DNA from: a virus
Virus record (IMG/VR): IMGVR_UViG_3300020213_000027
Location: 1-64,000 of that record
Strand: one strand, 5' to 3'
Length of the DNA: 64,000 nt
Shown here: one piece after another, positions 4,708 to 54,894 of the stretch
How positions within the stretch are numbered: position 1 is the stretch's first letter
Layout: every line of letters begins with the position of its first letter
Program-made: the position numbers and the translations under genes
Notes under the pieces: model-generated
Told to the model about the DNA's origin: nothing
The model's database searches: none
The model's input: only the letters and a program-made list of their open reading frames with translations

Positions 4708-6108
4708 CTAGATATCAAATTTCCACACATATCCTTTATAAGATCTCTTATATTTAATAGCTTGTCCAATATTACTATTTTGAAATCCGGCCTCTTTAGC
4801 TTTAATAGCTGAGTTAAATTTAATAACTTCATTAGTTTCATTATGGGTGCCAATTACGGCTTTAGAATTCATTTTGGAAGTCTGTAGGCGTCTTTCAGGA
4901 CGTTTAGAAGCTTCACCACCAGCTATTGCACCAGGAAGTCTAGAAGCGTTATATTCCGCTTCTGGAAGAAGAGGAGAGGGATTTTCTTGTTTCCATATAG
5001 TAGATATGACATATCGACATTTTTTGCAATAGCAATCAAAAACATTTCTATCCTCTAAAAAAGTATAATTTTGTAGTTCTTTATATTTGAAACACTTAGA
5101 ACACTCTCTATTTTCTATATTATCAATAAGTTTATTAATTTTTGGTATTTTCATTCCAATAGGAAGTTTTTGAGGATTTATTTTGTGGTATTGTGCTCTA
5201 ATTTGCGATAATTTTTCTTTTGTTTCTTCTGAATGGATGTAACCTTGCGTTCCTTCGCCTCCTTCTGTTTCGTTTGTTAGATCATTTCCAAGATCATTAT
5301 AGTATTTAATCCAAAATGTTTCTTTATCATTTAATAAATCATAATTAAATACGTTCTCTATCACTATAACTTTAGGTTTTAGTTGTTGATTATATAAGGA
5401 TTTAATCCAATTTTGTTTTCTATTGTGCCCTTCTAAAGAAGAAGGTTTAAAATGTTCATAAGGTCTATTTAAACCTGTTGTAGATTTGCCGACATATCTA
5501 ATCACAGATGTTAAAGGATCTTGTAATCCGTATATTATATTTAATGAAGTTTCTTTTAAATAAAAGACAAACTTATATTTTTGTAACTCTAGTATTTTAA
5601 GGAGGTTTTCTAACTTTGCTTGTTCTATTTCTTTTCTATTATTCTTTTTTGCCCTGTCCCAAACTTGTTTTTTATGTATTCTATTTTTATCTACATCTTC
5701 ATAATGATAATTTTCTGGAGTTTTTCCCAAATACTTAAAATTACTAGCTTTATAAACTGTTCCGACATGATTTTGAGTAGGATCTGCAAAAGTAACAATT
5801 GAATCATAATCTGTATTTATTTTAAGCCATCTTAGACATTTAGAAATAAAATAGGATTCAGAATTTTTTGGTGTGTCATCTATCAATACTAGTCTATTTA
5901 ATTCAATAGTTTTATATCCTTTAGGAACACGAATATTTTGTCTAGAAGGATTAGAAAAAGTACATACACCAAGTACTTGATTATTTAATTTTAATAAAAA
6001 ACCATAGCGTATAGACCCAGATTTTTTAGTATAGTGATTCTGTTTAATAAAATCTCTACAAATATTTTTGTTCGTGTCTAATTCAATTATAAAATCTTTT
6101 ATCTTCAT
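4708..6108 (-). CDS. Mom-like (GNAT) adenine-modification domain fused to GIY-YIG endonuclease, NUMOD3, Zn finger and NUMOD1-type HTH
   Basis: NHY...GVCTF...ELNRL...PKNSESYFIS...TFADPTQNHVGTVYKASNF (Mom-like); IIYGLQDP...IRYVGKS (GIY-YIG); GGEG..G..HSEETKEKLS (NUMOD3); CSKC/CKKC; FNSAIKA...KGYVWKF. Confidence 0.75.
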   Translation of the reverse strand: MKIKDFIIELDTNKNICRDFIKQNHYTKKSGSIRYGFLLKLNNQVLGVCTFSNPSRQNIRVPKGYKTIELNRLVLIDDTPKNSESYFISKCLRWLKINTDYDSIVTFADPTQNHVGTVYKASNFKYLGKTPENYHYEDVDKNRIHKKQVWDRAKKNNRKEIEQAKLENLLKILELQKYKFVFYLKETSLNIIYGLQDPLTSVIRYVGKSTTGLNRPYEHFKPSSLEGHNRKQNWIKSLYNQQLKPKVIVIENVFNYDLLNDKETFWIKYYNDLGNDLTNETEGGEGTQGYIHSEETKEKLSQIRAQYHKINPQKLPIGMKIPKINKLIDNIENRECSKCFKYKELQNYTFLEDRNVFDCYCKKCRYVISTIWKQENPSPLLPEAEYNASRLPGAIAGGEASKRPERRLQTSKMNSKAVIGTHNETNEVIKFNSAIKAKEAGFQNSNIGQAIKYKRSYKGYVWKFDI

Positions 6109-6244: not shown

Positions 6245-7471
6245 TTATGAATTTACGATTGCTGTTATAATGACATTTCTTCCAGGAGCCGCACAGAAGA
6301 GGGCCATGTCTGAGAATGCTCGGAGTTCAACCCCTGCGCTATTTTCAAGCTCACGGAAGAAGTTTCCTTCCATTCCAGGTCTCTTGAAAGTAACATCAGT
6401 GCTGCCTACTCTTGCAAATTCCTTAAGATCAAGGATATAAGCATAACCTTCTTTGACATAAATAGAAGGTTCGATAGTAACCATACCATTTTGTCCATAG
6501 AACTTGATGGATTTTCCACCGTTGTTCATTTCAGAAGGACCGTATGATTGATCATATCGTCTAAGAGCAGCTTGTTCAGAAAGAAGATCTGCCCAAGTTT
6601 TCGGGTTAACCATCACAGTTACATCACTGTCCAAGCCCTTTGCTACTGCAGAAGCAATAGCTCTTTCAATTTTAGCAAGAGAAAGAGAAGCTGAACCAGC
6701 AGAGTAAGTATTTCCAGACCAGAGCGAGAACGCACTAGCAGAAATGTTGAAAAGAGTTCCAGTGTTTGTCAAGATTTTATGAACACCAGCAAACTCATTG
6801 CCGTAAGCACCTTTATGCCAAATAACGTCAGTACCGGTAGTTCCAGCAGGAAGCAAATCAACAGTGACAGTTCTAGCAGAAAGATCTACAGAGCTAACAT
6901 TAGCATTACCACGAGAAGTGGTACCAGCAGAATCACGAATTTCGATTGGCATATTTTCAGCGCCAGCCCAAATTCCAGGAGCGAATTCTGTAGTAGTAAT
7001 AGTAATAACATTACCAGCTGTAGAAGCTACTGTGCCATAACCCATTTGACCATAAAGAAGCTCAATTTCAAGCTTTTTGGTGATCGAACGAAGCATGTTT
7101 GCAACCAAGAACTTGGTAGCATCCATAAATGCTTTAGAGCCGCCTTGAGCAGCACGTGAAGCAGCAGTATATCCAAGAACAGATCTTAGAACTACTGGGT
7201 TACCACGAACTTGAGCATCTTTAATCTGTCCAGCTACAGGAGCGTTAAGATTAAAAGCGTCATCATCGCTAGAAGCGAAGGTAACACCATGTTCATGTCC
7301 AAGAATAACTGGTTGATGGTAAAGATTACCAGGTTGTTTTTCTTTAGAAATAAACTCGATCATACGATAAAGTTTAAGTCCTTCAGGAATAAGATTTTCC
7401 AATTTGTCAGCATACGTCTCTTTGAAAAGACCGTTAAGTGTATCTGAGAAAGTATTTGCACTATTTGCCAT
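6245..7471 (-). CDS. major capsid protein
   Basis: 408 aa; LNGLFKETY N-terminus; downstream of scaffold-like gene; strong RBS (GAGG); followed by a terminator. Confidence 0.8.
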   Translation of the reverse strand: MANSANTFSDTLNGLFKETYADKLENLIPEGLKLYRMIEFISKEKQPGNLYHQPVILGHEHGVTFASSDDDAFNLNAPVAGQIKDAQVRGNPVVLRSVLGYTAASRAAQGGSKAFMDATKFLVANMLRSITKKLEIELLYGQMGYGTVASTAGNVITITTTEFAPGIWAGAENMPIEIRDSAGTTSRGNANVSSVDLSARTVTVDLLPAGTTGTDVIWHKGAYGNEFAGVHKILTNTGTLFNISASAFSLWSGNTYSAGSASLSLAKIERAIASAVAKGLDSDVTVMVNPKTWADLLSEQAALRRYDQSYGPSEMNNGGKSIKFYGQNGMVTIEPSIYVKEGYAYILDLKEFARVGSTDVTFKRPGMEGNFFRELENSAGVELRAFSDMALFCAAPGRNVIITAIVNS

Positions 7472-9222: not shown

Positions 9223-9549
9223 TTACTGATACCCTAAAGTTCCAGTAAAATCCGCGTTAGTTAAAATGGCGTTTGTTAGATTAATTCCGGTTAAAATTGC
9301 CCCAAACATCCGGCAACCAGTTAGATTTGCTCCCGATAGATTAGCTCCATCTAGCATTGCTCCAGTTAGATCTGCTTCAACTAAGCTAGCTCCAGCTAGA
9401 TTTGCATTAATGAGGATTTTTCCAGCTAGATCTGCGTACTGTAAAGAAACTGCTTGGGCCACTGCTAGCTCAACTGCCATTTTCATCGAATCTGCTGTGC
9501 ATTCAAAAATTACTGAGGAAGTCCATCTGTTCTTAATCTGTATTCTCAT
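9223..9549 (-). CDS. pentapeptide-repeat protein
   Basis: tandem A[DN]LxG pentapeptides. Confidence 0.85.
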   Translation of the reverse strand: MRIQIKNRWTSSVIFECTADSMKMAVELAVAQAVSLQYADLAGKILINANLAGASLVEADLTGAMLDGANLSGANLTGCRMFGAILTGINLTNAILTNADFTGTLGYQ

Positions 9550-9557
9550 ATAATCTC

Positions 9558-10592
9558 CTATGCTAGGATAAAGCTGCCGCCAGTTATAGCTATTGCTCCA
9601 ACTTGAGTCATCAAACTTCCTTCTACTGTACAGCCTGCTCCTACTGATATCGCTCCGGCAGAAGTGAGAGCAAGGCCTCTGTAGATGCTACCTGCTCCAA
9701 TTGAAAAAGCTCCTGAACAAGCTATAAATACATGTGATGCCAATGCTCCATTGAGCAATACTACAGATGCGACTGCCCCAATAGCAAAAGCGCCAGCAAC
9801 TTGAAAAACAAAAATAGAATCGGGATTACCCTGAGCATCAAGATAGAGAGTGCCGCCGATTGATGCTGCTCCTGCTATTGAATAAACTCCAGGCAATAGA
9901 GTTTCTCCTGTGCCAAAAGCTGGAGCGTGAATTGCGTTCGTTATAGCCATTATCATTACATTGTTAAATAAGACAGGTAGGTATGCAGCAACTGAGGAAC
10001 TAACAAAATCAGCGTTATGTATGACCACTGTCATAGGAAAACCAGAAACTACTCCCAAATTTGATCCAACTTCTATGGGATCAGTACCCAACGGCGTAAA
10101 TTTGTTTACACCGGAGGCATCAACAGCACCTGAAGATGAAAAAAGTAGGTATGGCTTTGAAGATCCTCGATTGAAAGGATCTGTAATTATTTCTACCATA
10201 TAAAGACCTTGGTATACGTTTGTAGACCCTACCTGCTCTATATATGCATTGGATAACTGTCCTTTAATTCTATATGTTTTAGAAATAGAGTTCAGAGTAG
10301 TTCCAGAAGAAATAAAGGCAACTCTTCCAGTTCCTTGTTGAATAAAATTAGTACTAAATAGATTAGGTAGGCCTGCAGGTATAGTAATGCTTATGTTCAC
10401 AGCTAAATTATTAACTAGAATAGTTGAATTGTTGTCTGAAGATAAAAGAGTATAATCGCCCGTTATTATTTTTTGTGCGTGTTTAAGATAATCAAGAATT
10501 GTTTGAACATCTGATGCTCCAGATATCGCTCCTTGTATAGAATCATCATATGGAATAGCTGCGGCTACTGGAGTTATGATTACGTGACTCAT
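9558..10592 (-). CDS. virion-associated protein with C-terminal ice-binding-like (DUF3494) beta-solenoid
   Basis: TLLPGVY...GTLYLDAQGNPDSIFVFQ...VVLLNGALASHVF, characteristic of DUF3494. Confidence 0.7.
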   Translation of the reverse strand: MSHVIITPVAAAIPYDDSIQGAISGASDVQTILDYLKHAQKIITGDYTLLSSDNNSTILVNNLAVNISITIPAGLPNLFSTNFIQQGTGRVAFISSGTTLNSISKTYRIKGQLSNAYIEQVGSTNVYQGLYMVEIITDPFNRGSSKPYLLFSSSGAVDASGVNKFTPLGTDPIEVGSNLGVVSGFPMTVVIHNADFVSSSVAAYLPVLFNNVMIMAITNAIHAPAFGTGETLLPGVYSIAGAASIGGTLYLDAQGNPDSIFVFQVAGAFAIGAVASVVLLNGALASHVFIACSGAFSIGAGSIYRGLALTSAGAISVGAGCTVEGSLMTQVGAIAITGGSFILA

Positions 10593-11125
10593 TATGAACT
10601 CTCTGTTATTCTAGCGGTTTTACTGTTGGCAGAAGCCACTAACCAGACTTGAAAGGTGCCATATGGATTTATTGAAAATAAAATCTGTTGATTTTTATAA
10701 AGAGGGGTTCCTGTTGAGGTAGTTACAGCATTATCATATCCCCAATATATATTATCTAGGGCAGTTATGGTAAGAAATTTTCTATTGCTAAGTTTAGAAA
10801 CTCCAACTTTTGCTTCATATGCAATGTTTGCAGTTGTTAAGGCTAGACTTCCATATACACCATTATCCCCTAATCCGATATAGACAGGGAATACAGAATT
10901 TGCGACTGCTTCAAGGTACTTTAATGCATCTCCATATATATATTCATTTATTCCATCAGACAATAAAACATTTCCATAATTACAATCTGATACTAATTGC
11001 GCATCTCTTGAAATTTGAAAAATCTGGGAAGAAGTAACTGTGTAGTTTGCACTTTGAGCAATTAAAACTGTACTGCTTAAATAACTACGTTGACCACTAC
11101 TTTTATTATATATTATTAAAATCAT
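10592..11125 (-). CDS. putative virion protein (member of the paralogous beta-sandwich cluster)
   Basis: C-terminal RKFLTI...IYWG...TGTPL domain resembles its neighbours. Confidence 0.55.
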   Translation of the reverse strand: MILIIYNKSSGQRSYLSSTVLIAQSANYTVTSSQIFQISRDAQLVSDCNYGNVLLSDGINEYIYGDALKYLEAVANSVFPVYIGLGDNGVYGSLALTTANIAYEAKVGVSKLSNRKFLTITALDNIYWGYDNAVTTSTGTPLYKNQQILFSINPYGTFQVWLVASANSKTARITESS

Positions 11126-11126
11126 T

Positions 11127-12482
11127 TTAAACCTCCACCCAAATTGCAGTAATCGCTACTAGCCTATTATTAGATGATGGATTTGCTACTATGATAATAT
11201 TATTATTAGGTTGAACTGCTATAGTAAACTCATCTCCAAATACTACAGAGTTATTATTTTGCCCATTTTCAAAAGCAGATATTTGATTGCCTAAAACAGA
11301 TAGTGTAGGCAAAGTAAAAGCTGTTATAGAACCACTAGCAGGGGAATTTCCTATATTTCTTTGTCTAGTTGTTAATGAAGTTCCATTTAGTGTGATAGTA
11401 GGGTTAGAATATATCTTACATTCTATAGATACATTAGTTACAGAAGCACCTAATGATATCTTAGAAATATACATGACTCTTCCACTACCAGATGGATTTT
11501 TTAATAACAATATAGGATTATCAGTTCCTGATAAAGCTGCATTAATAGAAGCGCTAGCAGAAAAAGTTTGATTATTCGTTAAATAACTAAAACTGGCAGG
11601 GGCAACAGTTCCCGTAATTCGTAATGATCCGGCAGTGTCTAAAGACAAAGGATTAGTTTGTGCTGTAGTATAGGTAGGTGCTGCTGTAGTGACTGCTCCT
11701 AAAGTAAGAGACCCAGTTTGACCAGAAGTAGTGCTTCCTTGAGCCAAGGTAAGAGTACTTGCAATCGTAGATAAAGAAGTATTTGCTGTTGTTTGATTAG
11801 CTGAGGTTGAAGCACCTGAAGGCAATGGTAGTGATACTGCTGATATGGGTTGTGTAACTGCGCTACCATCTACTTTCCATGCTGTAGTGTTAGCTGTATT
11901 TCCTGGTTGTACTGTCCAAGTTCCACTTTGTGTAGCAGCGACTGTACCTGAATCGATGACAGTATGTAAATTGGTGCCGGTAGCTTGAGTAACTGTTACT
12001 GTTGTTAATGGAGTAAGTGTTGTAAGTTGAGCAGCAGTAAGTACCACAGGGCTTGAAGCGGCGGCTAAGGCTTGTCCTAAAGCTGGGGTCTTTGAATCTA
12101 TACTTGATAATGAGGAATTACCTGTAGTTTGAAGAGATGAGGTAGAAGCTCCAGTTGGTAGAGAAACTGTACCCGTAATGTTTCCTAATGTAGTGACTGC
12201 AGCTAATGTGCTAGCAGGTTTTAAAAGAGTATTTATTGAGGCGTCTTGAGTAGTTTGAAGAGCTGCTGTTGCCGCACCAGTAGGTAATGGCAAAGATGTA
12301 GCATCTACAGTTATACTATTACCACCATCCTGAATATTAACAGCCAAAGCTCCAGTTGAATTAGTTACATTAGCTTTAATAGAATCAGATACATTACCAA
12401 TAGGAGTATTATCTAAAGCTCTAAGTTCAACTAATTCATTATCAAATGCTGATGTTGAATTACTGTCAGTTAAATCAGCCAT
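11127..12482 (-). CDS. Thr/Ser/Ala-rich fibre/spike-like virion protein
   Basis: repeated SLPLPTGA[AS]T units; C-terminal beta domain. Confidence 0.6.
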   Translation of the reverse strand: MADLTDSNSTSAFDNELVELRALDNTPIGNVSDSIKANVTNSTGALAVNIQDGGNSITVDATSLPLPTGAATAALQTTQDASINTLLKPASTLAAVTTLGNITGTVSLPTGASTSSLQTTGNSSLSSIDSKTPALGQALAAASSPVVLTAAQLTTLTPLTTVTVTQATGTNLHTVIDSGTVAATQSGTWTVQPGNTANTTAWKVDGSAVTQPISAVSLPLPSGASTSANQTTANTSLSTIASTLTLAQGSTTSGQTGSLTLGAVTTAAPTYTTAQTNPLSLDTAGSLRITGTVAPASFSYLTNNQTFSASASINAALSGTDNPILLLKNPSGSGRVMYISKISLGASVTNVSIECKIYSNPTITLNGTSLTTRQRNIGNSPASGSITAFTLPTLSVLGNQISAFENGQNNNSVVFGDEFTIAVQPNNNIIIVANPSSNNRLVAITAIWVEV

Positions 12483-12768
12483 TTTTCTTCCTAGATTTTT
12501 TAGGTTTTGGTTCTTCTTTAGAAACTTCAGGAGCTGAAGTAATAGTATTTTTCTCTTCTACAGGCTGTAAAGGCATAGGAGCTTTTGATGGAATTTGTTG
12601 AACAATTGATTGAATAGGTTCAATAGACTCTTTTAAAATAAACTCTAACCAATGATAAGCACGAGCTAAAGCAAGAGCTTCAAGACCTTCCATTTCACTA
12701 AATTTGGAACGTCGAATTAACTTTAACAAATTTTGAACTTCTAGTTTTTCTTTATTATCTAACTTCAT
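12475..12768 (-). CDS. hypothetical protein
   Basis: 97-aa ORF in the operon. Confidence 0.55.
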   Translation of the reverse strand: MKLDNKEKLEVQNLLKLIRRSKFSEMEGLEALALARAYHWLEFILKESIEPIQSIVQQIPSKAPMPLQPVEEKNTITSAPEVSKEEPKPKKSRKKNG

Positions 12769-12775
12769 AACATTT

Positions 12776-12807
12776 AAAAAAGGGGAGGAATTACTCCCTC
12801 CCCCTCC
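12776..12807 (-). terminator. Rho-independent terminator
   Basis: GGGGAGG/CCTCCCC hairpin plus T-run on the minus strand after ORF 12815..13957. Confidence 0.7.
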
Positions 12808-12814
12808 TATTTAA

Positions 12815-13957
12815 TTAAGCTAATTCAAAAATCCGAACGGCATTACCAGCACTACCAGCAATAGCAAAGAAATTGATAGCTTGTCCAGCTTCAAGAGAGA
12901 GAGTAGCTCCCTTTTCAATTTTAAGGCCAGTAGTAGATAAAACTCCAGTTGGACCAACATAGATCGGATTAGAAGAAGAATTTTGAACCATAATTCTTCG
13001 TCTTCCTGCAAGAGCTGCTGGAAATGCAATTTCAGTTGCTCCAACAGTTAGTACTTGAGAATTAAGATCAATATTTGGACTATCATTGATAAAAATTCGT
13101 CGATACATATCTGATAATAGATCAGCTCTATTGCCAGTAGCAGAAACAGCAGCAAGTGCACCACTAACAGCCCTAGATCCAATTTTAGCTGGATTTTCAG
13201 TATCAGCGATGTTATCAGCAACAGTGCCTACTGGCGCTGTCCACAATGCTCCACGTGCATTTTGTTTCAAGTTACCATAGTCACCATCTGCAGAAGTGCT
13301 AGAAGCAAGAGTGTCTTGTCTTACACCACCAACAGATGCTAATTGATCTGCATCAGCTGAAGCGCTATCTTCAGCATAAACAAAATCAGAAGTGACATTA
13401 AAATCAGCTGCGACTATAACACGACCTTTATTATCAACTGCAATAGGACTATAATCCCCATTGGCAGAAGTTAAAGTTGTAGCAGCAGAATCATTTCTAA
13501 CGGCCAACATAAATTGACCATTATCACCTGATGTATGTGCAGCATCTTCAGCAAAGATTCCACTAGTTGCACTTAATACAACATTAGCTTCACCAGCCGC
13601 TGAAATAAGCATAAAATCAGCGCCATCACCAATTTTAATACTATCTTGTGTATGAGAAAGATCTCTAATATCTAGATCTGTAGCAGAAACAGTTGCAGTG
13701 CCGCTAATAACCCAAGGACTAGTTCCTTGATACGCAGTTACTGAATCTGTAGCAAATGCTAAATCTCTAATATCAAGATTAGTTGCTGTTACATTAACAT
13801 CATTAATGACATTAACGTCTAATCCCTCTTTACCACTAACAAGAGTAGATGAAAGTAAATCACCATCACTACCAGCTCTTAAATAAGCACCAATATTATC
13901 TGAATCAGCAGCATCTGCTGGATCAAAAATTAGCTTATCTTTTGTTAAACTACCCAT
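12815..13957 (-). CDS. putative virion (head spike/decoration-like) protein
   Basis: ATxLDIRDL and AEDxAxxxxD repeats; C-terminal RRRIMVQN..PIYVG domain. Confidence 0.6.
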   Translation of the reverse strand: MGSLTKDKLIFDPADAADSDNIGAYLRAGSDGDLLSSTLVSGKEGLDVNVINDVNVTATNLDIRDLAFATDSVTAYQGTSPWVISGTATVSATDLDIRDLSHTQDSIKIGDGADFMLISAAGEANVVLSATSGIFAEDAAHTSGDNGQFMLAVRNDSAATTLTSANGDYSPIAVDNKGRVIVAADFNVTSDFVYAEDSASADADQLASVGGVRQDTLASSTSADGDYGNLKQNARGALWTAPVGTVADNIADTENPAKIGSRAVSGALAAVSATGNRADLLSDMYRRIFINDSPNIDLNSQVLTVGATEIAFPAALAGRRRIMVQNSSSNPIYVGPTGVLSTTGLKIEKGATLSLEAGQAINFFAIAGSAGNAVRIFELA

Positions 13958-13971
13958 TTTTTATTCCTATT

Positions 13972-14289
13972 CTAAACCCACTCTAGTATTTCTACTATTT
14001 GAGCAGGTTTATTTGTTTGAAAATATAACGTTCCTGTAAAATTAACGCCTTCAACTGTATAACTAGAACCAGCGGAGATTGTTATGTAATTAGTACTACT
14101 TTGAGTAGCTATAAAGGCTAGTTTTAAACTAGCAGTTCCTCTAACTTTAATAGTCAACATTTTAGTGCTATCTGTTAAAATCTGAGATACTTCTGTATTA
14201 GCTAAAGTAACAACAACATTATATATTGTAGGAAATTGTGATTGCTCAACTGTTGCCCTACCACGTATAGTGCCTGATACATTACTCAA
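13972..14289 (-). CDS. small beta-rich putative virion protein
   Basis: jelly-roll-like alternating pattern, within the structural cluster. Confidence 0.5.
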   Translation of the reverse strand: MSNVSGTIRGRATVEQSQFPTIYNVVVTLANTEVSQILTDSTKMLTIKVRGTASLKLAFIATQSSTNYITISAGSSYTVEGVNFTGTLYFQTNKPAQIVEILEWV

Positions 14290-14846
14290 GCTAACTCCAT
14301 TATTTTAACTCTAACAGTTTTACCAACTTCGGTAATACCATATATAACAATATTATCTTTAATATCTAAGTTAAAACCTTCATTGGGACCAACTTCCCAT
14401 CCTGCATTTGACCCAAGTGCTCTATCTGCAGTAACGCTCGCTGTAAAACCGACATATAATATATCTACAAGTGATAAATTAGTTAAAGATAGACTATTTC
14501 TCATACTTAGAGCAGTAGCAGGAATAGCTATTGCTGTGCTTGAAATATCTAAAGTTTTAACAGATCCAGCAACCGTTAATCCGCTAGGAGTAAATGTGCC
14601 TGTTATAGAACCTGCTATAATATTTACATCTAACCCAACATCAGGACCTATTACAGTGGCTGTTACTAAATTAGTCCCATCTCCAATTCGAATGCTATCG
14701 TCTGTATGAGAAATAGCTACTTCAACAGGACCTGGAATTACGGCAGTAACTGCAGCATCGACGCGTATTCTATCATTTAAAGGATCAAATACTCTATTGG
14801 GTATCTGACCTGGATCTAAATGTGATAAATTTGGATTTTGGGCCAC
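14286..14846 (-). CDS. putative virion protein, paralog of 12815..13957
   Basis: shares SHTxDSI[RK]IGDG and GLDVN[IV]I motifs and the C-terminal domain. Confidence 0.6.
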   Translation of the reverse strand: MAQNPNLSHLDPGQIPNRVFDPLNDRIRVDAAVTAVIPGPVEVAISHTDDSIRIGDGTNLVTATVIGPDVGLDVNIIAGSITGTFTPSGLTVAGSVKTLDISSTAIAIPATALSMRNSLSLTNLSLVDILYVGFTASVTADRALGSNAGWEVGPNEGFNLDIKDNIVIYGITEVGKTVRVKIMELA

Positions 14847-14870: not shown

Positions 14871-15080
14871 TTAATAAAGCAAATCTTTTAGTTGTTCTAT
14901 AAGAGTTTTATATTTTATCAAACCACTATTATTAAATTCTAATTTATATTTAGTCCACTCATCATCAGTAATATCAAAAAAATATCTACCTTTTCCTCTA
15001 GATATCACTTCATACTTTGCAATTTTAATATCTTTCGACATTAAAAAAGCACTGAACCATAAATCGGTGCCGCTCTTCAT
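14871..15080 (-). CDS. hypothetical protein (DUF5659-like)
   Basis: TDLWFSAFL...G..YFF pattern. Confidence 0.5.
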   Translation of the reverse strand: MKSGTDLWFSAFLMSKDIKIAKYEVISRGKGRYFFDITDDEWTKYKLEFNNSGLIKYKTLIEQLKDLLY

Positions 15081-15223
15081 AATCTCTCAACTATCAAAAT
15101 ACTTAATAGGACTGTTTTAATAACTAAACCTACAATAAACAATCTTTTATATTTATGAGCTTTGGATTTAACGTCTGCTCTTTTAATTTCTTGTCCAGGT
15201 TGCCTAAAAATCATCTTTGCCAT
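15077..15223 (-). CDS. 48-aa hypothetical protein with C-terminal hydrophobic segment (not in ORF track)
   Basis: MAKMIFRQ...LFIVGLVIKTVLLSILIVERL; start follows the previous stop; stop overlaps the next ATG. Confidence 0.55.
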   Translation of the reverse strand: MAKMIFRQPGQEIKRADVKSKAHKYKRLFIVGLVIKTVLLSILIVERL

Positions 15224-15373
15224 TTAAGTTCTCTTTAATTTCTTTTTTAAAAACTTAAATTTTTCTTCTTTTCCTGGCTTCTTATGAGTTTTCATAGCTT
15301 TTGAAGTAGCATCTGAATAACTTTCTTTATATAAAGGTAAAAGTGATAGAAAAGTATTTGCAGATTCAGCCAT
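15224..15373 (-). CDS. 49-aa microprotein resembling the MCP N-terminus, with Lys-rich tail (not in ORF track)
   Basis: MAESANTFLSLLPLYKESYSD versus MCP MANSANTFSDTLNGLFKETYAD; fills the gap between neighbours exactly. Confidence 0.7.
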   Translation of the reverse strand: MAESANTFLSLLPLYKESYSDATSKAMKTHKKPGKEEKFKFLKKKLKRT

Positions 15374-15374
15374 A

Positions 15375-15926
15375 CTATTTCATTCGTCCTTTTGTAATCT
15401 CTTCTAAAAGTTTTCTTTTTTCTTCATCTCTCATTGCAGTTTGAGCTACTGATTCTGCTGCCTTAGATGTGGATCTTCCAGCTGCTTGAGTTGCCATTCC
15501 TAAGTCATGTCCTGTCATTTGTCCAGTTTCAGCACCACGTTGAGTTATATTCATAAGTTCATTATTAATAACTGACTCATCTGCAAATTTACCAGCACCT
15601 TGTCCAATAGCCTTTTTTTCTTGAAGCATAGGAATAAGTTTTTCTTTTAAAGCTGCAAATCTAGCTGCTGTAGGAGTAAGATTTTCAATAGGTTGTGCAG
15701 TCTTTGCCATAATATTACTACCAACAGCTCCAAGCTCATTACCAATAATACCAGCAGCATCTCTTGCCATTGCGCCGCCTAATTTAGCTCCAGCAGCTCC
15801 AGCTACATAATCAATAGGTGAATCTGTAGGTTCAATAGAATCTTGAGTTTCTTTATCGCCCGCTATTTTATCTAAAAAATTTCTTATAGTTAACTCATTA
15901 GTCGATTTTAAATCATATTTAGGCAT
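15375..15926 (-). CDS. hypothetical (possibly internal virion) protein
   Basis: Ala/Gly-rich, directly downstream of the portal. Confidence 0.5.
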   Translation of the reverse strand: MPKYDLKSTNELTIRNFLDKIAGDKETQDSIEPTDSPIDYVAGAAGAKLGGAMARDAAGIIGNELGAVGSNIMAKTAQPIENLTPTAARFAALKEKLIPMLQEKKAIGQGAGKFADESVINNELMNITQRGAETGQMTGHDLGMATQAAGRSTSKAAESVAQTAMRDEEKRKLLEEITKGRMK

Positions 15927-15927
15927 A

Positions 15928-17979
15928 TTATCCTTTTACGTTGCCTAGAGCCTGCTGTTGCAGTTCTGGATTTGGGAGTAAACCCGCATTAACTTTAGCT
16001 GGTTGTGGAATTCTAATTGGTCCTTGTAATCCAGGACCTTCAATATGTCCACCTTGTACTCCTGGTCCCATAAGTCCTTGTTCTGGAGGCATCATTTGAC
16101 CAGAAGGAGAAGCTCCAGGAGGACCTTGTGGAGAAGGAGCAGCACCTTGTGGAGGAGCTAAAGGAGGTAATGGAGCTTGTTTTAGCATTTGAAGTGTGCC
16201 AGGATCAGTAGTTCGTAATAATTCAATGTGTTCTTGAATATGGTGTTGAACTCTTAAAACTAAATCTGCATCTTTTTTAAGTTCTGGATCAAATAATACT
16301 GATCTATGTCCATCAATATGTTTTTGGTGATCTTCAGTAAAAATAGCTTGCTGAGGTTCACCATCAATTAGAGCTTCATTTTCTGCTCTAATAAGTAAAC
16401 TCTCATGTACAATATTTTCAGTAATTGCGTTTAAGTTACCAGTATTAATAAGATTTACATACTGAGCAGCATCAATTTGTTGATATTGAAGAAGTTGTTC
16501 TGCCATTTGAACACGGCCTGCGGTCGTTCTAGCGAGCGGATTACCTATATCAACTACAACTCTAGAGATATTAGAAATATCTTGAGATGTAAATTCTTTC
16601 ATATAAGCACGATTAGTTTTACCAGCAATAGCAACAATACGAGGAGTGTGCGCAAAATCTTGAAGCATCTTAATAATAGCAGTTCCAATAGATTCAACTA
16701 ATTCTACATAGGATTGTTGAAGTCCAGACATGAATTGTAATGCCATTGATTGAACTAGAGCCAAAGCAGTACCAGATTTAAGACTTGCTTCTGGTTGACC
16801 TCTAGCTACACTATTAACTCCTGAAAGAGTTTCCATAGATTGTTCGATCATTTGAATAAATTTAAAAACTTCAGCTGGAGTACTAGTAAGATTTAAAGGT
16901 TCTGGTTTTCCTGCAGCAGCATTGTAATCAATAATATTTAATCCGCCTGCTAATTGATTAACTGCGATGTCAGTTCCTCTAGGATTTAATACGTTTTGAA
17001 CACCAAAAGCATTTTGATTTGTAGCCACTGTACTATATAAACTATTAAGAATTTCTTGAAGAGGAAGTAGATCAAACATTGGAGTATAGCCATGAGGGGT
17101 GCCATGAATATTTGAAGGAGCAATTCTAAATACTGGAAGAGTTCTATAAGGCATTGCAACATCTTGTAGAACAATGTCAGATGATACAAACATCATATAT
17201 CGACCATCGGGCATACAATCTGTTCTATTATGATAGAATTCCATAATAGCGACATCATCAGTAGTATCTAAAAGTGTAGAAATTCCTAAACGAAATCTTT
17301 GCAATTCAGATTTAGTTTGTAAAGACTTAATTTCATCTGCAAATTCAGGATATTTTGCTGCTAGGTCATATTTATTTTTCCAACGTCTAATAAGAACCCA
17401 ATCATGATTTCCTGTTTCTTTGGTTCCATCAAACATAACATCAAAAGGAGATAAATTTTCAAATATAATATCTCCTTCAAAGATTTTGGTTTTAGTTTCT
17501 TCAATATAATCTACTATTTCACCTTTTGTTGCATCCCATTCCATGACAACAAAACCACTACCATAAACAATAGCATATTCAACTGCTTGTTTAAGGTAGC
17601 CTTCTACTTTTTTCTCTCTAAGATAGTAATCTAAAATACTATTAGCTAAATAGGTTTGAACTAAAGACTTATAATCTGTATTTGTTGCTCTACAATCAAG
17701 CGCAGGACGATTTGAAACCGTCATTACGAGCATATGTGTTGCAATATTACGCCATTGATTTACTGGGAGATTTACTAATTCACCTTGTTCACCAGCAAAA
17801 GTTACTTGGTGTCCTGATCCCGTATCACTATAATAAGCACCATGGTACGCCATGAAACAACTTCTTAGTTTTTCTAAAAAGCCATTAGATTCAATAGAAT
17901 TGGACCAGTTTTGTACTTTAGAATCTAAAATTGAAGCAACAGCGTTGCTATCTTTGGCAGCAAAATATTGGTTATCCAT
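15928..17979 (-). CDS. portal protein
   Basis: 683 aa directly after the terminase; ETLSGVNSVARG...SGTA motif; Pro/Gln/Gly-rich tail. Confidence 0.85.
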   Translation of the reverse strand: MDNQYFAAKDSNAVASILDSKVQNWSNSIESNGFLEKLRSCFMAYHGAYYSDTGSGHQVTFAGEQGELVNLPVNQWRNIATHMLVMTVSNRPALDCRATNTDYKSLVQTYLANSILDYYLREKKVEGYLKQAVEYAIVYGSGFVVMEWDATKGEIVDYIEETKTKIFEGDIIFENLSPFDVMFDGTKETGNHDWVLIRRWKNKYDLAAKYPEFADEIKSLQTKSELQRFRLGISTLLDTTDDVAIMEFYHNRTDCMPDGRYMMFVSSDIVLQDVAMPYRTLPVFRIAPSNIHGTPHGYTPMFDLLPLQEILNSLYSTVATNQNAFGVQNVLNPRGTDIAVNQLAGGLNIIDYNAAAGKPEPLNLTSTPAEVFKFIQMIEQSMETLSGVNSVARGQPEASLKSGTALALVQSMALQFMSGLQQSYVELVESIGTAIIKMLQDFAHTPRIVAIAGKTNRAYMKEFTSQDISNISRVVVDIGNPLARTTAGRVQMAEQLLQYQQIDAAQYVNLINTGNLNAITENIVHESLLIRAENEALIDGEPQQAIFTEDHQKHIDGHRSVLFDPELKKDADLVLRVQHHIQEHIELLRTTDPGTLQMLKQAPLPPLAPPQGAAPSPQGPPGASPSGQMMPPEQGLMGPGVQGGHIEGPGLQGPIRIPQPAKVNAGLLPNPELQQQALGNVKG

Positions 17980-26931: not shown

Positions 26932-28221
26932 ATGAGTGAACAAGAAGTTCCAATTTCAGATGATGAGAAAAAGAAAGCTTTACAATCAGCTATATTTCAT
27001 CTTAGTAATCAACAACCATTCTATGGAAGTTTAGTTCAAGAAATAACTGTAAAATATACTACTTTTATTCCAACTGCTGGCATAACTTATAATGTAAAAC
27101 AGCATCAATATGAAATTTATATCAATCCTTATTTTTTTCATAGTCTAACTACTGAGGAAAGAGTTGCTGTTTTTCACCATGAGATCCTCCATTTCACTAA
27201 TAAACACCTATTTCGATTACCTTTTACTGATGGGACAATTAGTAATGAAGATAAAAAGCTATATAACATAGCTGGTGATATGGCTATTAACCAATATATT
27301 ACAGGACTTCCAAAAGGTGGTGTTGAGGTAAAAGATTGGAAAATGAGTAATGGTTCCCCATTTGAACAGTACCAAAATATGGAATATTATTATGACTTGA
27401 TCAAAGAAGAATCAAAGAAGCAGCAGAAGAATAAAGATGGTGATGAACCTGGTGAGCAATCAAAAGACGGTAATGAAGAATCTAAAGGAACTAAAGGCAA
27501 CGTTCATGAGCAGTTAGATAAATATAAAGAATTTGATAGACATTTCTGGGATAGTTTGGATGAAGAAACTAAAAAGAAGATGTTAGAAGAAGCTAAGAAG
27601 ATTATTAAGCGTACTATAGAAAAGACTTCTTTTAGTCATAGTGTAGTTCCTGATAGTATTAAAGATCTATTATCTGAAATTGATTCTCTATCAGCCTCTA
27701 TTAACTATAAACAAATTCTTAAAAATACTATTAAACGAACTATATCTTGTGTTGATAGAGAAAGAACATGGAAGAAACCTAATAAGCGATATGGAGCTTA
27801 TAGTCCTGGAACCAAGGTAGGATCTCTTCCTAAATGCGCATTCTTTAATGATAGCAGTGGAAGTATTTCTATTAAAGAACAAAATGAATATCTTAGAATG
27901 ATGGATGAATTCCTAAAAGTAGGAACTAGAAGTTGTACTCTAGGATTTTGGCATACTTCTCTTTATTATAAAAAACCATATAAACGTGGAATAGAGCTTG
28001 ATCAAGAGGCTTTACAATCAGGTGGAACTGATGTAAGATGTGTATTGGAAGACATTAAAAAGAATAATTATAATCTTTCAATTATTTTTACAGACGGTTA
28101 TTATGATAATGTTGATATTAAATTAACTAATGAAATTATATGGATCATATCAAAAGATGGAAATTTAGATCATCCTTTAAAACATTTAGGTAAAACTATA
28201 GAATTGGATAAAATTAAATGA
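26932..28221 (+). CDS. putative metallopeptidase + VWA-like protein (DUF2201-type), partner of the AAA ATPase
   Basis: HHEILH, NIAGDMAIN, DSSGSI, GGTD, FTDGY. Confidence 0.85.
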   Translation: MSEQEVPISDDEKKKALQSAIFHLSNQQPFYGSLVQEITVKYTTFIPTAGITYNVKQHQYEIYINPYFFHSLTTEERVAVFHHEILHFTNKHLFRLPFTDGTISNEDKKLYNIAGDMAINQYITGLPKGGVEVKDWKMSNGSPFEQYQNMEYYYDLIKEESKKQQKNKDGDEPGEQSKDGNEESKGTKGNVHEQLDKYKEFDRHFWDSLDEETKKKMLEEAKKIIKRTIEKTSFSHSVVPDSIKDLLSEIDSLSASINYKQILKNTIKRTISCVDRERTWKKPNKRYGAYSPGTKVGSLPKCAFFNDSSGSISIKEQNEYLRMMDEFLKVGTRSCTLGFWHTSLYYKKPYKRGIELDQEALQSGGTDVRCVLEDIKKNNYNLSIIFTDGYYDNVDIKLTNEIIWIISKDGNLDHPLKHLGKTIELDKIK

Positions 28222-28508
28222 GTGACACACATACGTTTCAAGATTCAAGAAAGAAATTCACATTAACTGTTAAGATTGAATTTCTTAAAAAATGTGAGAA
28301 ACCTATTGAATATGATGCATACGATTTAAATAATAAGTTCTATATGTTTAAGTTTCTTCATAATCCAGCTGGACCCGCACTTATTCGACATGAAGATAAC
28401 TATGAAGAGTATTGGATTGACGGTAAAAATCTAGCCCATGCGAACCCTGAACTTAATAAAAAAATGAAACATACCAATAAATTTAATAAAAAATTAGAAG
28501 ATCTATGA
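28218..28508 (+). CDS. hypothetical protein with FxxKL tag
   Basis: LHNPAGPA...EYWIDG repeat-like unit; ends KFNKKLEDL. Confidence 0.6.
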   Translation: MSDTHTFQDSRKKFTLTVKIEFLKKCEKPIEYDAYDLNNKFYMFKFLHNPAGPALIRHEDNYEEYWIDGKNLAHANPELNKKMKHTNKFNKKLEDL

Positions 28509-28690
28509 ATGACAAATTTACGGGAATCATCCCACTAGATAGCCATTCTTCTGATATAAGATTTTGGGTTTATTATATTAATGGTATAGAAGTTACAAAA
28601 GAAGTATATACGATTCATATGGATGAACTTATTAAAAGATATAAGTTCAATAAAAAACTAAAGGAGATAGTCAATGAGGACGATAAATAA
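28505..28690 (+). CDS. hypothetical protein with FxxKL tag
   Basis: ends KFNKKLKEIVNE. Confidence 0.55.
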   Translation: MNDKFTGIIPLDSHSSDIRFWVYYINGIEVTKEVYTIHMDELIKRYKFNKKLKEIVNEDDK

Positions 28691-30136: not shown

Positions 30137-30320
30137 GTTAATAAAGCTAATTATGGACATCCTTAAAACAACACAGATTACAACGCATTCAAAGAAGAGA
30201 CTATTATCTAGACTTCAGGATCTTGCTCCCCTGCCCCCAGAACTATCTAGGAAGGCCAGAGAAGTGCTTGAGAAGAGAAAACAAAAGGTAGAGCAGACTC
30301 CTAAAAGGAAAATGAAATGA
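30081..30320 (+). CDS. hypothetical basic protein
   Basis: ORF in operon. Confidence 0.45.
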   Translation: MWIKNQLCIVRPLGMKTSKLIKLIMDILKTTQITTHSKKRLLSRLQDLAPLPPELSRKAREVLEKRKQKVEQTPKRKMK

Positions 30321-30592
30321 GTGACATATTAAAACAAGTTGACGAAAGAATTGTCATACATAAGAAAACAATGGTAGAATGTGAACAAAAGATTGAAAGA
30401 CTCCTAGAGATTAGAACTCTATTATTAAATGTGTCTCCAACTACCTATGTGATATTTGATAAAATTAGCAACTTCGCTGCTTCAAAGCAATATGTTAGTG
30501 TGGAAGAACTTACCAATGCTCTAATTAGTATAGATAAGGATATTAAGTCAGTACAATTTACAACAAAGCTAGAGAAAGAAATAGAGTCATAG
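30317..30592 (+). CDS. hypothetical protein with FxxKL tag
   Basis: ends QFTTKLEKEIES. Confidence 0.55.
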   Translation: MSDILKQVDERIVIHKKTMVECEQKIERLLEIRTLLLNVSPTTYVIFDKISNFAASKQYVSVEELTNALISIDKDIKSVQFTTKLEKEIES

Positions 30593-30593
30593 A

Positions 30594-30818
30594 ATGAAGC
30601 CTATGTTATTAGAAATCTACAAAGGTTACCACATATATTGGGACATCTGCGTTATATATTGGGACATCTGCGTTGAAAGGAATAAGGCCTATTTTATGGA
30701 GAAGAAAATAGTTCATATACCATCTACTGATACTAGCAATATTAAACTAATCATAAATGCTTGGGAGAAACCTAAGGAATTCCAAGATAAACTAGAGAAG
30801 TTAATAAATGAAACCTAA
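30594..30818 (+). CDS. hypothetical protein with FxxKL tag
   Basis: ends EFQDKLEKLINET. Confidence 0.55.
   Translation: MKPMLLEIYKGYHIYWDICVIYWDICVERNKAYFMEKKIVHIPSTDTSNIKLIINAWEKPKEFQDKLEKLINET
30633..30674 (+). repeat. perfect 21-bp tandem duplication (IYWDICV x2)
   Basis: ATATATTGGGACATCTGCGTT twice. Confidence 0.9.
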
Positions 30819-36769: not shown

Positions 36770-36908
36770 TATGATTGACAAACTATTAAAAGGCTTATTT
36801 ATTTTAGTTATTTGCTTTCTAATCTATTTTACTGGTTGGTGTCAAGGATTTAATCGAGGCTACGATGTTGGAGAACAGATTACTAAGCAGACTTATAGGA
36901 TACAATAA
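36714..36908 (+). CDS. small membrane protein
   Basis: TM segment; likely start at MIDKLL. Confidence 0.45.
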   Translation: MQKLITKTITHLLNFGWINMIDKLLKGLFILVICFLIYFTGWCQGFNRGYDVGEQITKQTYRIQ

Positions 36909-37141
36909 TGTTTAAAAATAATTTCATACAAATATTAGATGTTAATGATAGATCAGTTTGGATAGATTATACAAAGATTATATGTTTACATAAAGATGAA
37001 GGCAACCCAAATCAAATTAGAATCTTCCTGGAAGGTAAACAAATCTGGCTTGATATAAGTATAGATAGCTTTTTTGATATAATAAACAAGCATGAGCATA
37101 ACTTAAAATTTAATAAGTCTTTAGAAGAGATTATTAGTTGA
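36908..37141 (+). CDS. hypothetical protein with FxxKL-like tag
   Basis: ends KFNKSLEEIIS. Confidence 0.55.
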   Translation: MFKNNFIQILDVNDRSVWIDYTKIICLHKDEGNPNQIRIFLEGKQIWLDISIDSFFDIINKHEHNLKFNKSLEEIIS

Positions 37142-43898: not shown

Positions 43899-45002
43899 AT
43901 GACACAAAAACTATCATTTAGTGCAATAAATACATATACACAATGCGGTAGAAAATATGAGCTTCGTTATAAGAAGAATCTAAGAGGTAAGTATTTTCAT
44001 GCAGCTTTAGCATTTGGATCTGCAATTGATTCTTCTCTCAATGAGCTTCTATTAACTAAGGATTTATCTAAAGCAAAATTAGTATTTGACAAACAATGGA
44101 ATTTTCAATTTATTAATAAGAAATATACGTCTTTACCAAGTTATACGGACATAGTTTATGCTGAAGCTGATTTTGATGAAGAATTATTAACTGATGCTGA
44201 TAAGAATGATTTGCATGTAACTCTTTTAAATTTAAATGTTGATGGAACTTATTTAGAAATATATAATAATGTTCTAGAAGAGAAAAAAAGCAAAGGCTGG
44301 GATAATTTAACTCTAGAAAAAAGAAAATTCTTTAATTATACTAATTGGCTATCCTTAAGACAAAAAGGATATATAATGCTAGAAAGCTATAATAAAAAAG
44401 TTATGCACCAAATAGAAGAGGTCCTTGCTGTTCAAAAGGAAAATTATCTTCAAAACTCAGATGGTGATAAGGTAGTTCAATATTTAGATTTAATTGTAAG
44501 GTGGAAAGATGGACAAAGCATATTATTTGACAATAAAACTAGCGCTAGGGACTATGACATGGATAGCGCTGCACGCAGCCCGCAGCTCATCAGCTATTAT
44601 CATGGCGCTAAAGAAGAATATGGATTAAATGCCATAGGCTTCATAGTTTTAAAGAAAAATATACTTAAAAATAGACAAAAGATATGCAGCATTTGTATCA
44701 ATGATGGAAGTGGAGGTCGTCATAAGACTTGTGATGCTACTATCAATGGAAAACGTTGTAATGGTAAATGGAATGAAAGAATCGACCCAGAAGCTAGCAT
44801 CCAAATTGTTATTAATAAAGTAACAGACGTAGCTGAAAATTTAGTACTTGAAACCTTTAATGAAGCTAATGATGGAATTAAAAAAGGTAATTTTTATAGG
44901 AATTTATCAGCATGTCAAAATGGACCTATAATTTGTGAGTATAAGAATCTTTGTTGGAAGAATGATTCTAGTGAAATTGTAGATATGAGTAATGAAAAAT
45001 GA
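43899..45002 (+). CDS. PD-(D/E)XK exonuclease (RecB/Cas4-like)
   Basis: LSFSAINTYTQC, YLDL...FDNKT, QLISY, C-terminal C..C....C. Confidence 0.8.
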   Translation: MTQKLSFSAINTYTQCGRKYELRYKKNLRGKYFHAALAFGSAIDSSLNELLLTKDLSKAKLVFDKQWNFQFINKKYTSLPSYTDIVYAEADFDEELLTDADKNDLHVTLLNLNVDGTYLEIYNNVLEEKKSKGWDNLTLEKRKFFNYTNWLSLRQKGYIMLESYNKKVMHQIEEVLAVQKENYLQNSDGDKVVQYLDLIVRWKDGQSILFDNKTSARDYDMDSAARSPQLISYYHGAKEEYGLNAIGFIVLKKNILKNRQKICSICINDGSGGRHKTCDATINGKRCNGKWNERIDPEASIQIVINKVTDVAENLVLETFNEANDGIKKGNFYRNLSACQNGPIICEYKNLCWKNDSSEIVDMSNEK

Positions 45003-45325
45003 ATAAACTAATTTGGTATCCAATTACTAAAAAAACATACACTCATAAAAAAGCTTTAAATTATGCTAAAGCTAGAGGATTAAGATTACCAACTGTTGAA
45101 GAAATTAAAGAAGCTATTAAAAATAAAGAAGATTTAGGTAAAGTTTCATTCTGGTCATCGGAGGTTCATCCAGATGGTCCCGAATTCGCCTTCGTCTTCT
45201 TGGACGATGGCTATATTCTCAGCGACAATCGTGACTTTGGCTTATCGGTGCGCTGCGTGGAGACTGAGAAAGAAAAGTATAATAAAGAATTTAAAAATAA
45301 GCTTGATAATTTAATAAATGAATAG
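44999..45325 (+). CDS. DUF1566/C-type-lectin-like protein with DGR-type variable region and FxxKL tag
   Basis: RLPTVEE, FWSS, SVRCV; GC-rich 45149-45260; ends EFKNKLDNLINE. Confidence 0.65.
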   Translation: MNKLIWYPITKKTYTHKKALNYAKARGLRLPTVEEIKEAIKNKEDLGKVSFWSSEVHPDGPEFAFVFLDDGYILSDNRDFGLSVRCVETEKEKYNKEFKNKLDNLINE

Positions 45326-52403: not shown

Positions 52404-52646
52404 TTGATTATGATTACTACAGGTAGTATTATTTCAGGTACTTTATTTGTAAATTGCGATTCAGGAGCTCTTGCTATAGACAAACTTGAAAATCTATTAA
52501 AACTCCGTGGCGCCAATACATTTTGTGATAGCAATAATTCAGATAAATATTATATCTTAATTGAAAAGATTGAACTTGACGCTCTAAAAGCAGAATTACA
52601 TAGACTGCAGTTCCAATTAAAACTTGATAATCTTATAAAAGAGTGA
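52404..52646 (+). CDS. hypothetical protein with FxxKL tag
   Basis: ends QFQLKLDNLIKE. Confidence 0.5.
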   Translation: MIMITTGSIISGTLFVNCDSGALAIDKLENLLKLRGANTFCDSNNSDKYYILIEKIELDALKAELHRLQFQLKLDNLIKE

Positions 52647-54372: not shown

Positions 54373-54635
54373 ATAAAGGAAATATTATTCTTATATTGGG
54401 ATGTTTAATATCTATTGTAGGATTGTCTATTTTAGCTCTTTATGGTTTTACTCCCAAATTTAAACCCGGAGATTGTATTACATTGAAAAATCTTGAAGAA
54501 TGGGATAACTTTAAATGTAAAGTATTAAAAGTAGGAAAATATAAATATCTTCTAGATTGTCCTGGTTTTTCAAATAAAAAAGATCCTTACATAAATGATA
54601 CAGATTCTGAATATGGAAAAGTAGCTTGTGAATAG
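54351..54635 (+). CDS. membrane-anchored small Cys protein (FKPGDCI family)
   Basis: TM + KFKPGDCI...KVAC. Confidence 0.5.
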   Translation: MFGRKTMNKGNIILILGCLISIVGLSILALYGFTPKFKPGDCITLKNLEEWDNFKCKVLKVGKYKYLLDCPGFSNKKDPYINDTDSEYGKVACE

Positions 54636-54894
54636 GATATCTGCTTTGTATTTTGCATTTAAATTATATCTACAAGTTAGATATATGCTTTATAAGCATA
54701 ACATTCCTTGGAAATATGTTCATGAGGAGTTAATTTTATATCTTATGGAATTAGATACTTTTTATCTACCTAAAAATATGATACCCTCATTTATATTATT
54801 TCATATTGAAAACACATTTATAATAGAAGTCATTAAAACAAATCTAGTTTATAGAAAAAGATTTGAAGAAAAGTTAAATAGGATTATTAAATGA
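54628..54894 (+). CDS. hypothetical protein with FxxKL tag
   Basis: ends [11 protein letters not shown]. Confidence 0.5.
   Translation: MNRISALYFAFKLYLQVRYMLYKHNIPWKYVHEELILYLMELDTFYLPKNMIPSFILFHIENTFIIEVIKTNLVYRKRFEEKLNRIIK

Follow-up and report, generated by a model that had tools for sequence, protein, structure and literature searches.

A conserved small phage protein that copies the N-terminal arm of its own major capsid protein

Capsid protein arms and small head proteins in known systems

In the procapsid of phage 80alpha, the helix-and-hook at the C-terminus of the scaffold binds mainly the N-terminal arm (N-arm) helix of the major capsid protein (MCP) (PMC5644958). The scaffold of SPP1 binds the N-terminal MCP helix alpha1*, and after scaffold release this helix unfolds to an extended N-arm that lies antiparallel to the N-arm of the next capsomer (PMC6813328). 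Here we describe a 49-residue phage protein (hereafter the microprotein) whose first 22 or so residues, the N-module, copy the N-terminal arm of the phage's own MCP.

In the internal proteins of T4, the capsid-targeting sequence is the only conserved part. It loads these proteins into the scaffolding core, and they end embedded in DNA (PMC3012670). IPI, IPII and IPIII of T4 resemble the microprotein in having a short conserved N-terminal tag on small basic, otherwise diverse proteins of the head module. The T4 sequence differs in its length of about 10 residues and in ending in a gp21 protease site, at which it is cut off. The tag of the microprotein, in contrast, is a copy of the MCP N-arm.

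Like the microprotein, CpmB of SaPI1 is a small protein that copies half of the interface between scaffold and MCP N-arm, entering the assembly pathway (PMC5644958). CpmB is a parasite protein encoded by a satellite, copies the scaffold side and changes capsid size, whereas the phage described here copies its own MCP side and no role in size determination is suggested. PVP of P74-26 is located at the portal aperture, where its N-arm adds to a beta-sheet in the MCP P-domain from the interior and its Lys2 is inserted in the minor groove of the DNA (PMC12407722). As the microprotein would be in one of the less likely readings discussed below, PVP is an accessory protein with an interior MCP-binding N-arm at a penton-less vertex and a lysine on DNA (PMC12407722). 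Unlike the microprotein, PVP has a globular domain outside the capsid.

Cargo-loading peptides of encapsulins are short and terminal and dock cargo on the inner face of an HK97-fold shell. They are mostly C-terminal, unrelated in sequence to the shell protein, and carry enzymes. The N-module would resemble them as a short terminal docking peptide for the interior of an HK97-fold shell. The encapsulin cargo is an enzyme rather than a polybasic tail, and its peptide is not derived from the shell.

The locus and its likeness to the major capsid protein

The window, i.e. the whole stretch of 64,000 nt that was analysed, comprises positions 1-64,000 of a 79.8-kb IMG/VR virus record (IMGVR_UViG_3300020213_000027) with an estimated completeness of 95%. 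The record represents an uncultured phage of about 80 kb, and near-identical DNA was present in about 12 microbial-mat metagenome runs from 2018, and it may stem from several of these. Every listed holder of the microprotein region was a DNA contig of a microbial-mat metagenome. The structural module is located on the minus strand, from 20.8 kb to 0.2 kb of the window (Table 1). It runs from the terminase large subunit (two ORFs) and the portal protein through the 183-aa ORF, the microprotein and ORFs of 48 and 69 aa to about 6 kb of Ala/Thr/Ser/Gly-rich proteins, the scaffold-like protein of 312 aa, a 147-aa ORF and the MCP.

Table 1. Features of the microprotein locus and the head module (positions in the window)
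Feature	Position	Strand	Basis
Portal protein gene	15928..17979	-	phrog_156, E 6e-24; Pfam P22_portal, SU10_portal
183-aa ORF between portal and microprotein, without family match	15375..15926	-	ORF call; PHROGs/Pfam search
Microprotein gene P0001, 49 aa plus stop	15224..15373	-	ORF translation
N-module, residues 1-22 (MAESANTFLSLLPLYKESYSDA), copy of MCP N-arm	15308..15373	-	BLASTP, hhalign, shuffles
Polybasic tail, residues 23-49	15227..15307	-	12 K+R, 2 D+E; hypervariable across family
C-terminal amphipathic basic helix KFKFLKKKLK, version of RFxKIKxxLK	15233..15262	-	AF2 helix 40-46; family alignment
48-aa ORF with hydrophobic C-terminal segment, directly downstream of microprotein	15077..15223	-	ORF call
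Putative scaffolding protein gene, 312 aa	8170..9108	-	Position between portal and MCP; composition
Major capsid protein gene, 408 aa, HK97 fold	6245..7471	-	phrog_14242 major head protein, E 1.8e-12
MCP N-arm, residues 1-22 (MANSANTFSDTLNGLFKETYAD), sequence copied	7406..7471	-	BLASTP; AF2 helix 12-20

The preliminary description of this locus had reported an unannotated 49-aa ORF two genes past the portal and about 8 kb from the MCP gene. The ORF was recovered with the translation quoted there. Downstream of the portal gene it comes second, after the 183-aa ORF, and the distance to the MCP gene is 7.9 kb from start to start. Packing around the ORF is gapless. Its ATG lies 1 nt past the upstream stop codon, to which it is coupled, and the next ORF begins directly after its own stop. 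A Shine-Dalgarno-like motif was found at the usual distance in about half of the orthologues described below; in the window, AAGGA is located somewhat far upstream. Two population SNPs were detected within the ORF in mat metagenomes (15275 and 15278), both synonymous and in third positions. The Lys-rich tail that had been described was also confirmed, with 12 Lys or Arg against 2 Asp or Glu in 28 residues. Searches with the single 49-aa sequence gave no match in cultured phage records or IMG/VR, the DNA of the microprotein region gave none in phage records, and P0001 matched no Pfam or PHROGs profile.

The 312-aa protein is probably the scaffold, judged by position and composition, and it had no family match in PHROGs or Pfam. 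It has an acidic N-terminus, a coiled-coil middle and a conserved basic-hydrophobic C-terminus, KKQTIRDFLKV. This composition recurred in 48 relatives, in which the C-terminal motif KKxS[FY][KR]DFFG[VF] was strongly conserved. No match to a protease family was found among ten ORFs scanned (portal, p183, micro, p48, p69, p186, p105, scaffold, p147 and MCP), and no cleavage site of the L/I-x-E type is conserved at the end of the N-module. The Ala/Thr/Ser/Gly-rich stretch at 9223-14846(-) consists of ORFs of 186, 105, 380, 97, 451, 177 and 344 aa and also holds a 108-aa pentapeptide-repeat protein; those of its ORFs that were scanned had no family match. Directly downstream of the MCP gene, at 4708-6108(-), a 466-aa ORF was read from sequence as a Mom-like acyltransferase-type N-terminal domain joined to a GIY-YIG endonuclease with NUMOD-like motifs.

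An AF2 model of the MCP (31 sequences, pLDDT 75) showed the HK97 fold. Its best Foldseek matches were the capsids of VP1, SU10 and Pa223, and encapsulins were among the structural matches. In the model, the N-arm helix comprises residues 12-20 (LNGLFKETY). No solved structure related by sequence to the MCP or to the microprotein family was found.

The MCP gene of the window is uninterrupted. The MCP genes of many relatives are split by 1-3 inserts of 0.2-2.4 kb with GIY-YIG or LAGLIDADG endonuclease ORFs (L036:9195-10001, L048:2019-3500, L051:8840-10001, L056:3556-5830, L043:5430-6970, L059:1570-4330). The inserts have the appearance of introns with homing endonucleases; in an Rfam search with the MCP-gene inserts of relatives, the gathering score was reached for no intron family. 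One insertion site recurs within the codons of the N-arm helix, after LNG[LF]F, and the first exon is therefore only about 22-26 residues long. A further variation is an 8-residue tandem duplication of the arm tip (ANTFG-TPNNTVG-TLNG...), which was observed in the MCPs of L006, L008, L011, L012, L014, L016-L018, L034, L036, L040, L048 and others. The microproteins of the same phages keep a single tip.

BLASTP aligned residues 1-21 of the microprotein with residues 1-22 of the MCP, both from the initiator Met, with 13 of 22 positions identical (E 5e-5). For the first 24 residues, the comparison was extended to every six-frame ORF N-terminus in the window (273 ORFs, each at least 40 aa long). 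The best score was that of the MCP, 54, and the runner-up scored 31. With shuffled queries, best scores were 29.5 +/- 3.1 and the highest was 45, and none of 2000 reached 54. The likeness to the MCP N-terminus proposed in the preliminary description is thus upheld. It ends at residue 22 or so, as neither BLASTP nor hhalign showed homology to the MCP past the N-arm, and the AF2 model of the 49 residues contained no HK97 fold (pTM 0.26).

The codons of the two N-termini differ synonymously (GCT/GCA, TTT/TTC, GAA/GAG, GAT/GAC), and one Ser common to both is encoded by TCT in one and AGT in the other, which are separate codon families. These differences indicate that the likeness is old and was kept at the protein level, and that it did not arise by recent duplication or gene conversion.

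The likeness is also present throughout the relatives. When a profile of 28 microproteins was compared by hhalign with one of residues 1-45 from 40 MCPs, residues 1-23 aligned with 1-24 (probability 95.9%, E 5e-9). A microprotein HMM run over 69 related loci found the orthologues first, and its only other significant matches were MCP N-termini. In the phage's own 79.8-kb genome and five related records, three of them complete, the family profile matched only the MCP and, where present, the microprotein.

The positions conserved in both families are Asn6, Lys16/17, Glu17/18 and Tyr19/20. In the microproteins the Asn of xNT[FY] never varies, and in the MCPs it hardly does; at the Lys-Glu and the Tyr of L..[FY]KE.Y, variation is absent or rare in both families. 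Within the microprotein family, N6 and Y19 are invariant and K16 nearly so. This coincidence of conserved positions suggests a common binding partner. Each family also has constraints of its own. LNG and Phe16 are constrained only in the MCPs, while the microproteins have an obligatory aromatic residue after NT and usually K-P where the MCP has N-G.

Conservation, anatomy and distribution of the family

Relatives were fetched by their MCPs, which gave 69 IMG/VR loci with 41-73% MCP identity. A regular-expression scan followed by an HMM search over 31,732 six-frame segments of these loci identified small-ORF orthologues in 35 of the 69, of which 28 are distinct. L023 and L057 yielded two further, divergent copies. 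A search of public protein collections with the family profile retrieved 69 proteins at 90% clustering, and none of these 69 database homologues has a Pfam domain or a meaningful name. Public data hold at least 118 family representatives at 50% clustering, all of them intact short ORFs. PHROGs has no family for the group, and 140 members gave sporadic weak matches only.

Conserved residues of the orthologues are encoded by synonymous codons: Asn by AAT/AAC, Thr by ACT/ACA/ACC, Pro by CCT/CCA/CCC, Tyr by TAT/TAC and Leu by five codons. The microprotein gene is therefore a real, conserved gene under protein-level selection, and the idea that the ORF might lack conservation does not hold.

Family members are 30-99 aa long (32-99 aa for the 118 representatives). 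The profile match starts within the first few residues in nearly all of the 118 representatives, and the invariant Asn of the N-module is found at residue 5-6 in 125 of 141 members. Longer, fused forms carrying the N-module were sought and none was found, which is weak evidence. Across 140 aligned members the N-module is conserved and the tails are hypervariable; Lys and Arg make up 0.33 of the tail, and its net charge has a median of +9. Of 141 members, 97 have an amphipathic motif that is semi-conserved, [KR]F-x-[KR]-[ILT]-[KR]-x-x-[LIM]-K, RF..I-like and represented by KFKFLKKKLK in the window. CxC clusters are optional, with at least three tail Cys in 20 of 141 members. Also optional is a conserved C-module of 33 residues (KATAELDASKDPMKALKDKSYLNLKGKKGVAV), which is fused to the microprotein in 57 of 141 members (e.g., L011:342-554). 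The C-module stands alone in three lineages as a separate small basic ORF (L051:4863-5045, L050:902-1066 and L032:5267-5437), where the microproteins are short-tailed, which indicates that the longer forms are fusions of two small units.

AF2 gave no fold for the window microprotein (140 sequences, pTM 0.26) and predicted only short helices at residues 9-15 and 40-46. An intramolecular pair of N-arm and scaffold-like segments was considered and is unsupported, since the model shows no hairpin of the N-module with the C-terminal helix.

Other terminal peptides were noticed in the window. About ten otherwise different plus-strand ORFs end in a common C-terminal peptide, roughly KFNKKLEDLINE. They are located at 28218-28508, 28505-28690, 30317-30592, 30594-30818, 36908-37141, 44999-45325, 52404-52646, 54628-54894, 61225-61650 and 62463-62654. 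This peptide was considered as kin of the tail motif and was rejected, as register and charge differ.

In the relatives the portal gene is usually followed by at least one variable ORF, then by the microprotein, the scaffold, in some cases a homologue of p147, and the MCP. The microprotein gene is immediately upstream of the scaffold gene in at least ten lineages; the gap from its end to the start of the scaffold gene is about 80-240 nt in L048, L051, L045, L052, L056, L017, L008, L011, L025 and L031. The Ala/Thr-rich block lies between the two genes in the window and in L003, and on the portal side in L015, L019 and L064. Small ORFs with a hydrophobic C-terminal segment, akin to the 48-aa ORF of the window, were observed in L023, L057, L027 and L029.

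Three complete genomes lack the gene, those of L042 (the nearest relative by MCP, with 73-74% identity), L018 and L027, and so do several loci that span the whole interval between portal and scaffold. On the MCP tree its presence is patchy and well-supported branches force at least six changes, where some of the rows scored as lacking the gene are merely short contigs. Absence from complete genomes of close relatives indicates that the microprotein is not a required structural element but accessory, dispensable or replaceable. The gene is accessory and has been lost repeatedly. The type of scaffold C-terminus did not correlate with presence of the gene, and no compensating change was seen there. 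The only cultured MCP relative is Silvanigrella phage MWH-Nonnen-W8red 1 (31% identity), in which no member of the microprotein family was detectable.

In relatives without the microprotein, ORFs between portal and scaffold were observed to end in basic-hydrophobic sequences such as FNKVLKLFKG, NLFKLFKKNKL and PRFNKLFKK (L033:7173-7829, L035:2524-3213, L067:7396-8085, L013:1566-2255 and neighbours). One of these is a lysozyme-like protein of 218-229 aa. Judged by eye, these ends are reminiscent of the scaffold C-terminus, and they may serve as a tag that directs proteins to the head from the C-terminus.

Covariation with the cognate MCP, proposed in the preliminary description as a check, was weak overall. 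The likeness within 25 distinct cognate pairs did not significantly exceed that within shuffled pairs (permutation p 0.19 by BLOSUM and 0.12 by identity). Most positions shared by microprotein and MCP never vary among these pairs. A mild cognate excess was found at two positions, the Phe/Tyr of the tip (17 identical against 13.6 expected) and the Glu of K-E. Glu18 of the MCP is replaced by Gln only in L003 and L031, and the microproteins there have Gln or Pro for Glu; among the 23 other pairs, the acidic residue is lost from the microprotein in one. L042, which bears Glu, branches between L003 and L031 on the MCP tree, so that the coupled change either arose twice independently or arose once and was later reversed. 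The coupled Glu-to-Gln change is suggestive, as a comparison uncorrected for phylogeny.

Possible roles of the arm copy

The interpretation in the preliminary description, a free N-arm mimic with a basic tail in the head, is partly supported and is still the most economical reading of these data. It is possible, and we propose it tentatively, that the microprotein is a small disordered head accessory which is docked by N-arm mimicry and has a DNA-binding tail inside the head. The N-module would consist of an extended tip (xANTF) and an amphipathic helix (L..[FY]KE.Y) and act as a docking peptide for whatever normally receives the MCP N-arm; it probably docks where the MCP arm docks in the head. 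Docking would carry the hypervariable polycationic tail into the head interior, and the tail would most likely contact the packaged DNA as a counter-ion or condensing factor. The microprotein may leave the head by ejection with the DNA. Its closest functional likeness would be a capsid-targeting tag on a small basic internal protein, with the tag borrowed from the MCP itself. The sequences establish the mimicry, its conservation, selection on the protein, the place in the head module, the basic variable tail and dispensability, whereas head entry, the docking partner and DNA binding by the tail are inferred. Predicted disorder with only short helices fits a peptide that folds on binding, and the synteny portal-(X)-micro-scaffold-(p147)-MCP supports a role in head assembly.

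The contacts of the MCP N-arm in 80alpha and SPP1 indicate where a free copy of it would be expected, namely on the scaffold C-terminus or on an acceptor site in the MCP lattice. Such lattice sites would be vacant only around the portal. We judge the C-terminal helix of the scaffold, bound in the procapsid, to be a somewhat more likely partner than the vacant groove of a neighbouring MCP at the portal vertex. Two points speak for the scaffold route, the neighbouring scaffold gene and the T4-like pattern. The tip (NT[FY]) is conserved as strongly as the helix, which favours the lattice site, as known scaffold contacts involve the N-arm helix only and scaffold binding would leave the tip unexplained.

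Several observations argue against docking by N-arm mimicry or against the likeness to capsid targeting. In MCPs with the tip duplication, the spacing from tip to helix differs from that of the microprotein. Cognate covariation is not significant overall (p 0.12-0.19). Only one non-MCP protein per genome carries the tag, in the phage's own genome and five related ones, unlike capsid-targeting systems with several cargoes.

A broader claim would be that the family represents a previously unrecognised form of capsid addressing, in which self-mimicry of the N-arm places a polycationic DNA-contacting peptide in the head. This is doubtful at present. The arm copy would then capture the scaffold C-terminus or plug empty acceptor sites at the portal vertex, and the tail peptide would in some lineages probably bind Zn.

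A role as filler of N-arm sites at the portal vertex, the example given in the preliminary description, is unlikely, although several of the same facts suit it. The five hexons that surround the portal would be without the N-arms of the missing penton, and about 5-10 free copies per virion would fill these acceptor sites and stabilise the aperture, with the basic tail touching DNA or the portal wing. Copying of both tip and helix is as expected if a lattice site is occupied, PVP of P74-26 provides a published precedent (PMC12407722), the window gene is near the portal gene and a dispensable accessory suits a stabiliser. However, most relatives have the gene beside the scaffold gene and not the portal gene. 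It would be odd for a low-copy structural part to have a hypervariable tail that can bear clusters of Cys or an additional module, and a free peptide would be without the tethering that secures the real N-arm.

The place beside the scaffold gene, presumably with co-expression, would also suit an assembly modulator or decoy that is not kept in the virion. It would compete with the MCP for the scaffold C-terminus or for contacts between N-arms, and so buffer premature association of scaffold and MCP or aid scaffold release at DNA entry. Binding of the N-arm helix by the scaffold C-terminus in 80alpha and SPP1 and the strong conservation of this C-terminus agree with such competition, and SaPI1 CpmB sets the converse precedent, as its copy of the scaffold C-terminus competes for the MCP N-arm (PMC5644958). 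Towards its C-terminus the family has another amphipathic basic motif, which could in addition occupy the MCP site. This RFxKIKxxLK helix is, judged by eye, basic and amphipathic like the scaffold end KKxS[FY][KR]DFFG[VF] and resembles scaffold-type C-termini. Nevertheless, competition with an essential interaction is expected to be costly, scaffold C-termini are without compensating change in lineages with or without the gene, and neither the extreme positive charge nor the Cys clusters of the tails would be needed. We consider a decoy improbable.

A relic (a leftover 5' MCP fragment from a duplicated or intron-split gene) or selection on initiation at an mRNA 5' end is essentially excluded: MCP genes broken by endonuclease inserts, with a first exon of about 22-26 residues, do offer a route to a separate N-arm piece, but at least 118 clusters at 50% identity are all intact short ORFs, the likeness runs past the intron site after LNG[LF]F and through KE.Y.D, the place beside the scaffold gene is conserved, and an RNA-level explanation fails because amino acids are kept through synonymous codon change (Asn AAT/AAC, five Leu codons, Ser TCT versus AGT).

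Annotation and cryo-EM routinely overlook the small proteins of phage heads, and in this family at least 118 clusters carry no annotation. The family offers a concrete case, open to test, of a virus that mimics an interface of its own assembly pathway. From a 22-residue copy of the arm it should be possible to learn the partner of the arm, likely the scaffold or a neighbouring subunit, and the patchy distribution in close relatives provides natural comparisons with and without the gene. The family could explain how some phages gain peptides that neutralise DNA or stabilise a vertex. If capsid addressing by such self-mimicry is real, the 22 residues of the module would serve this phage group as a portable tag for capsid loading that can be predicted from sequence. 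The family would also supply a short natural tag with which cargo could be loaded into HK97-type shells.
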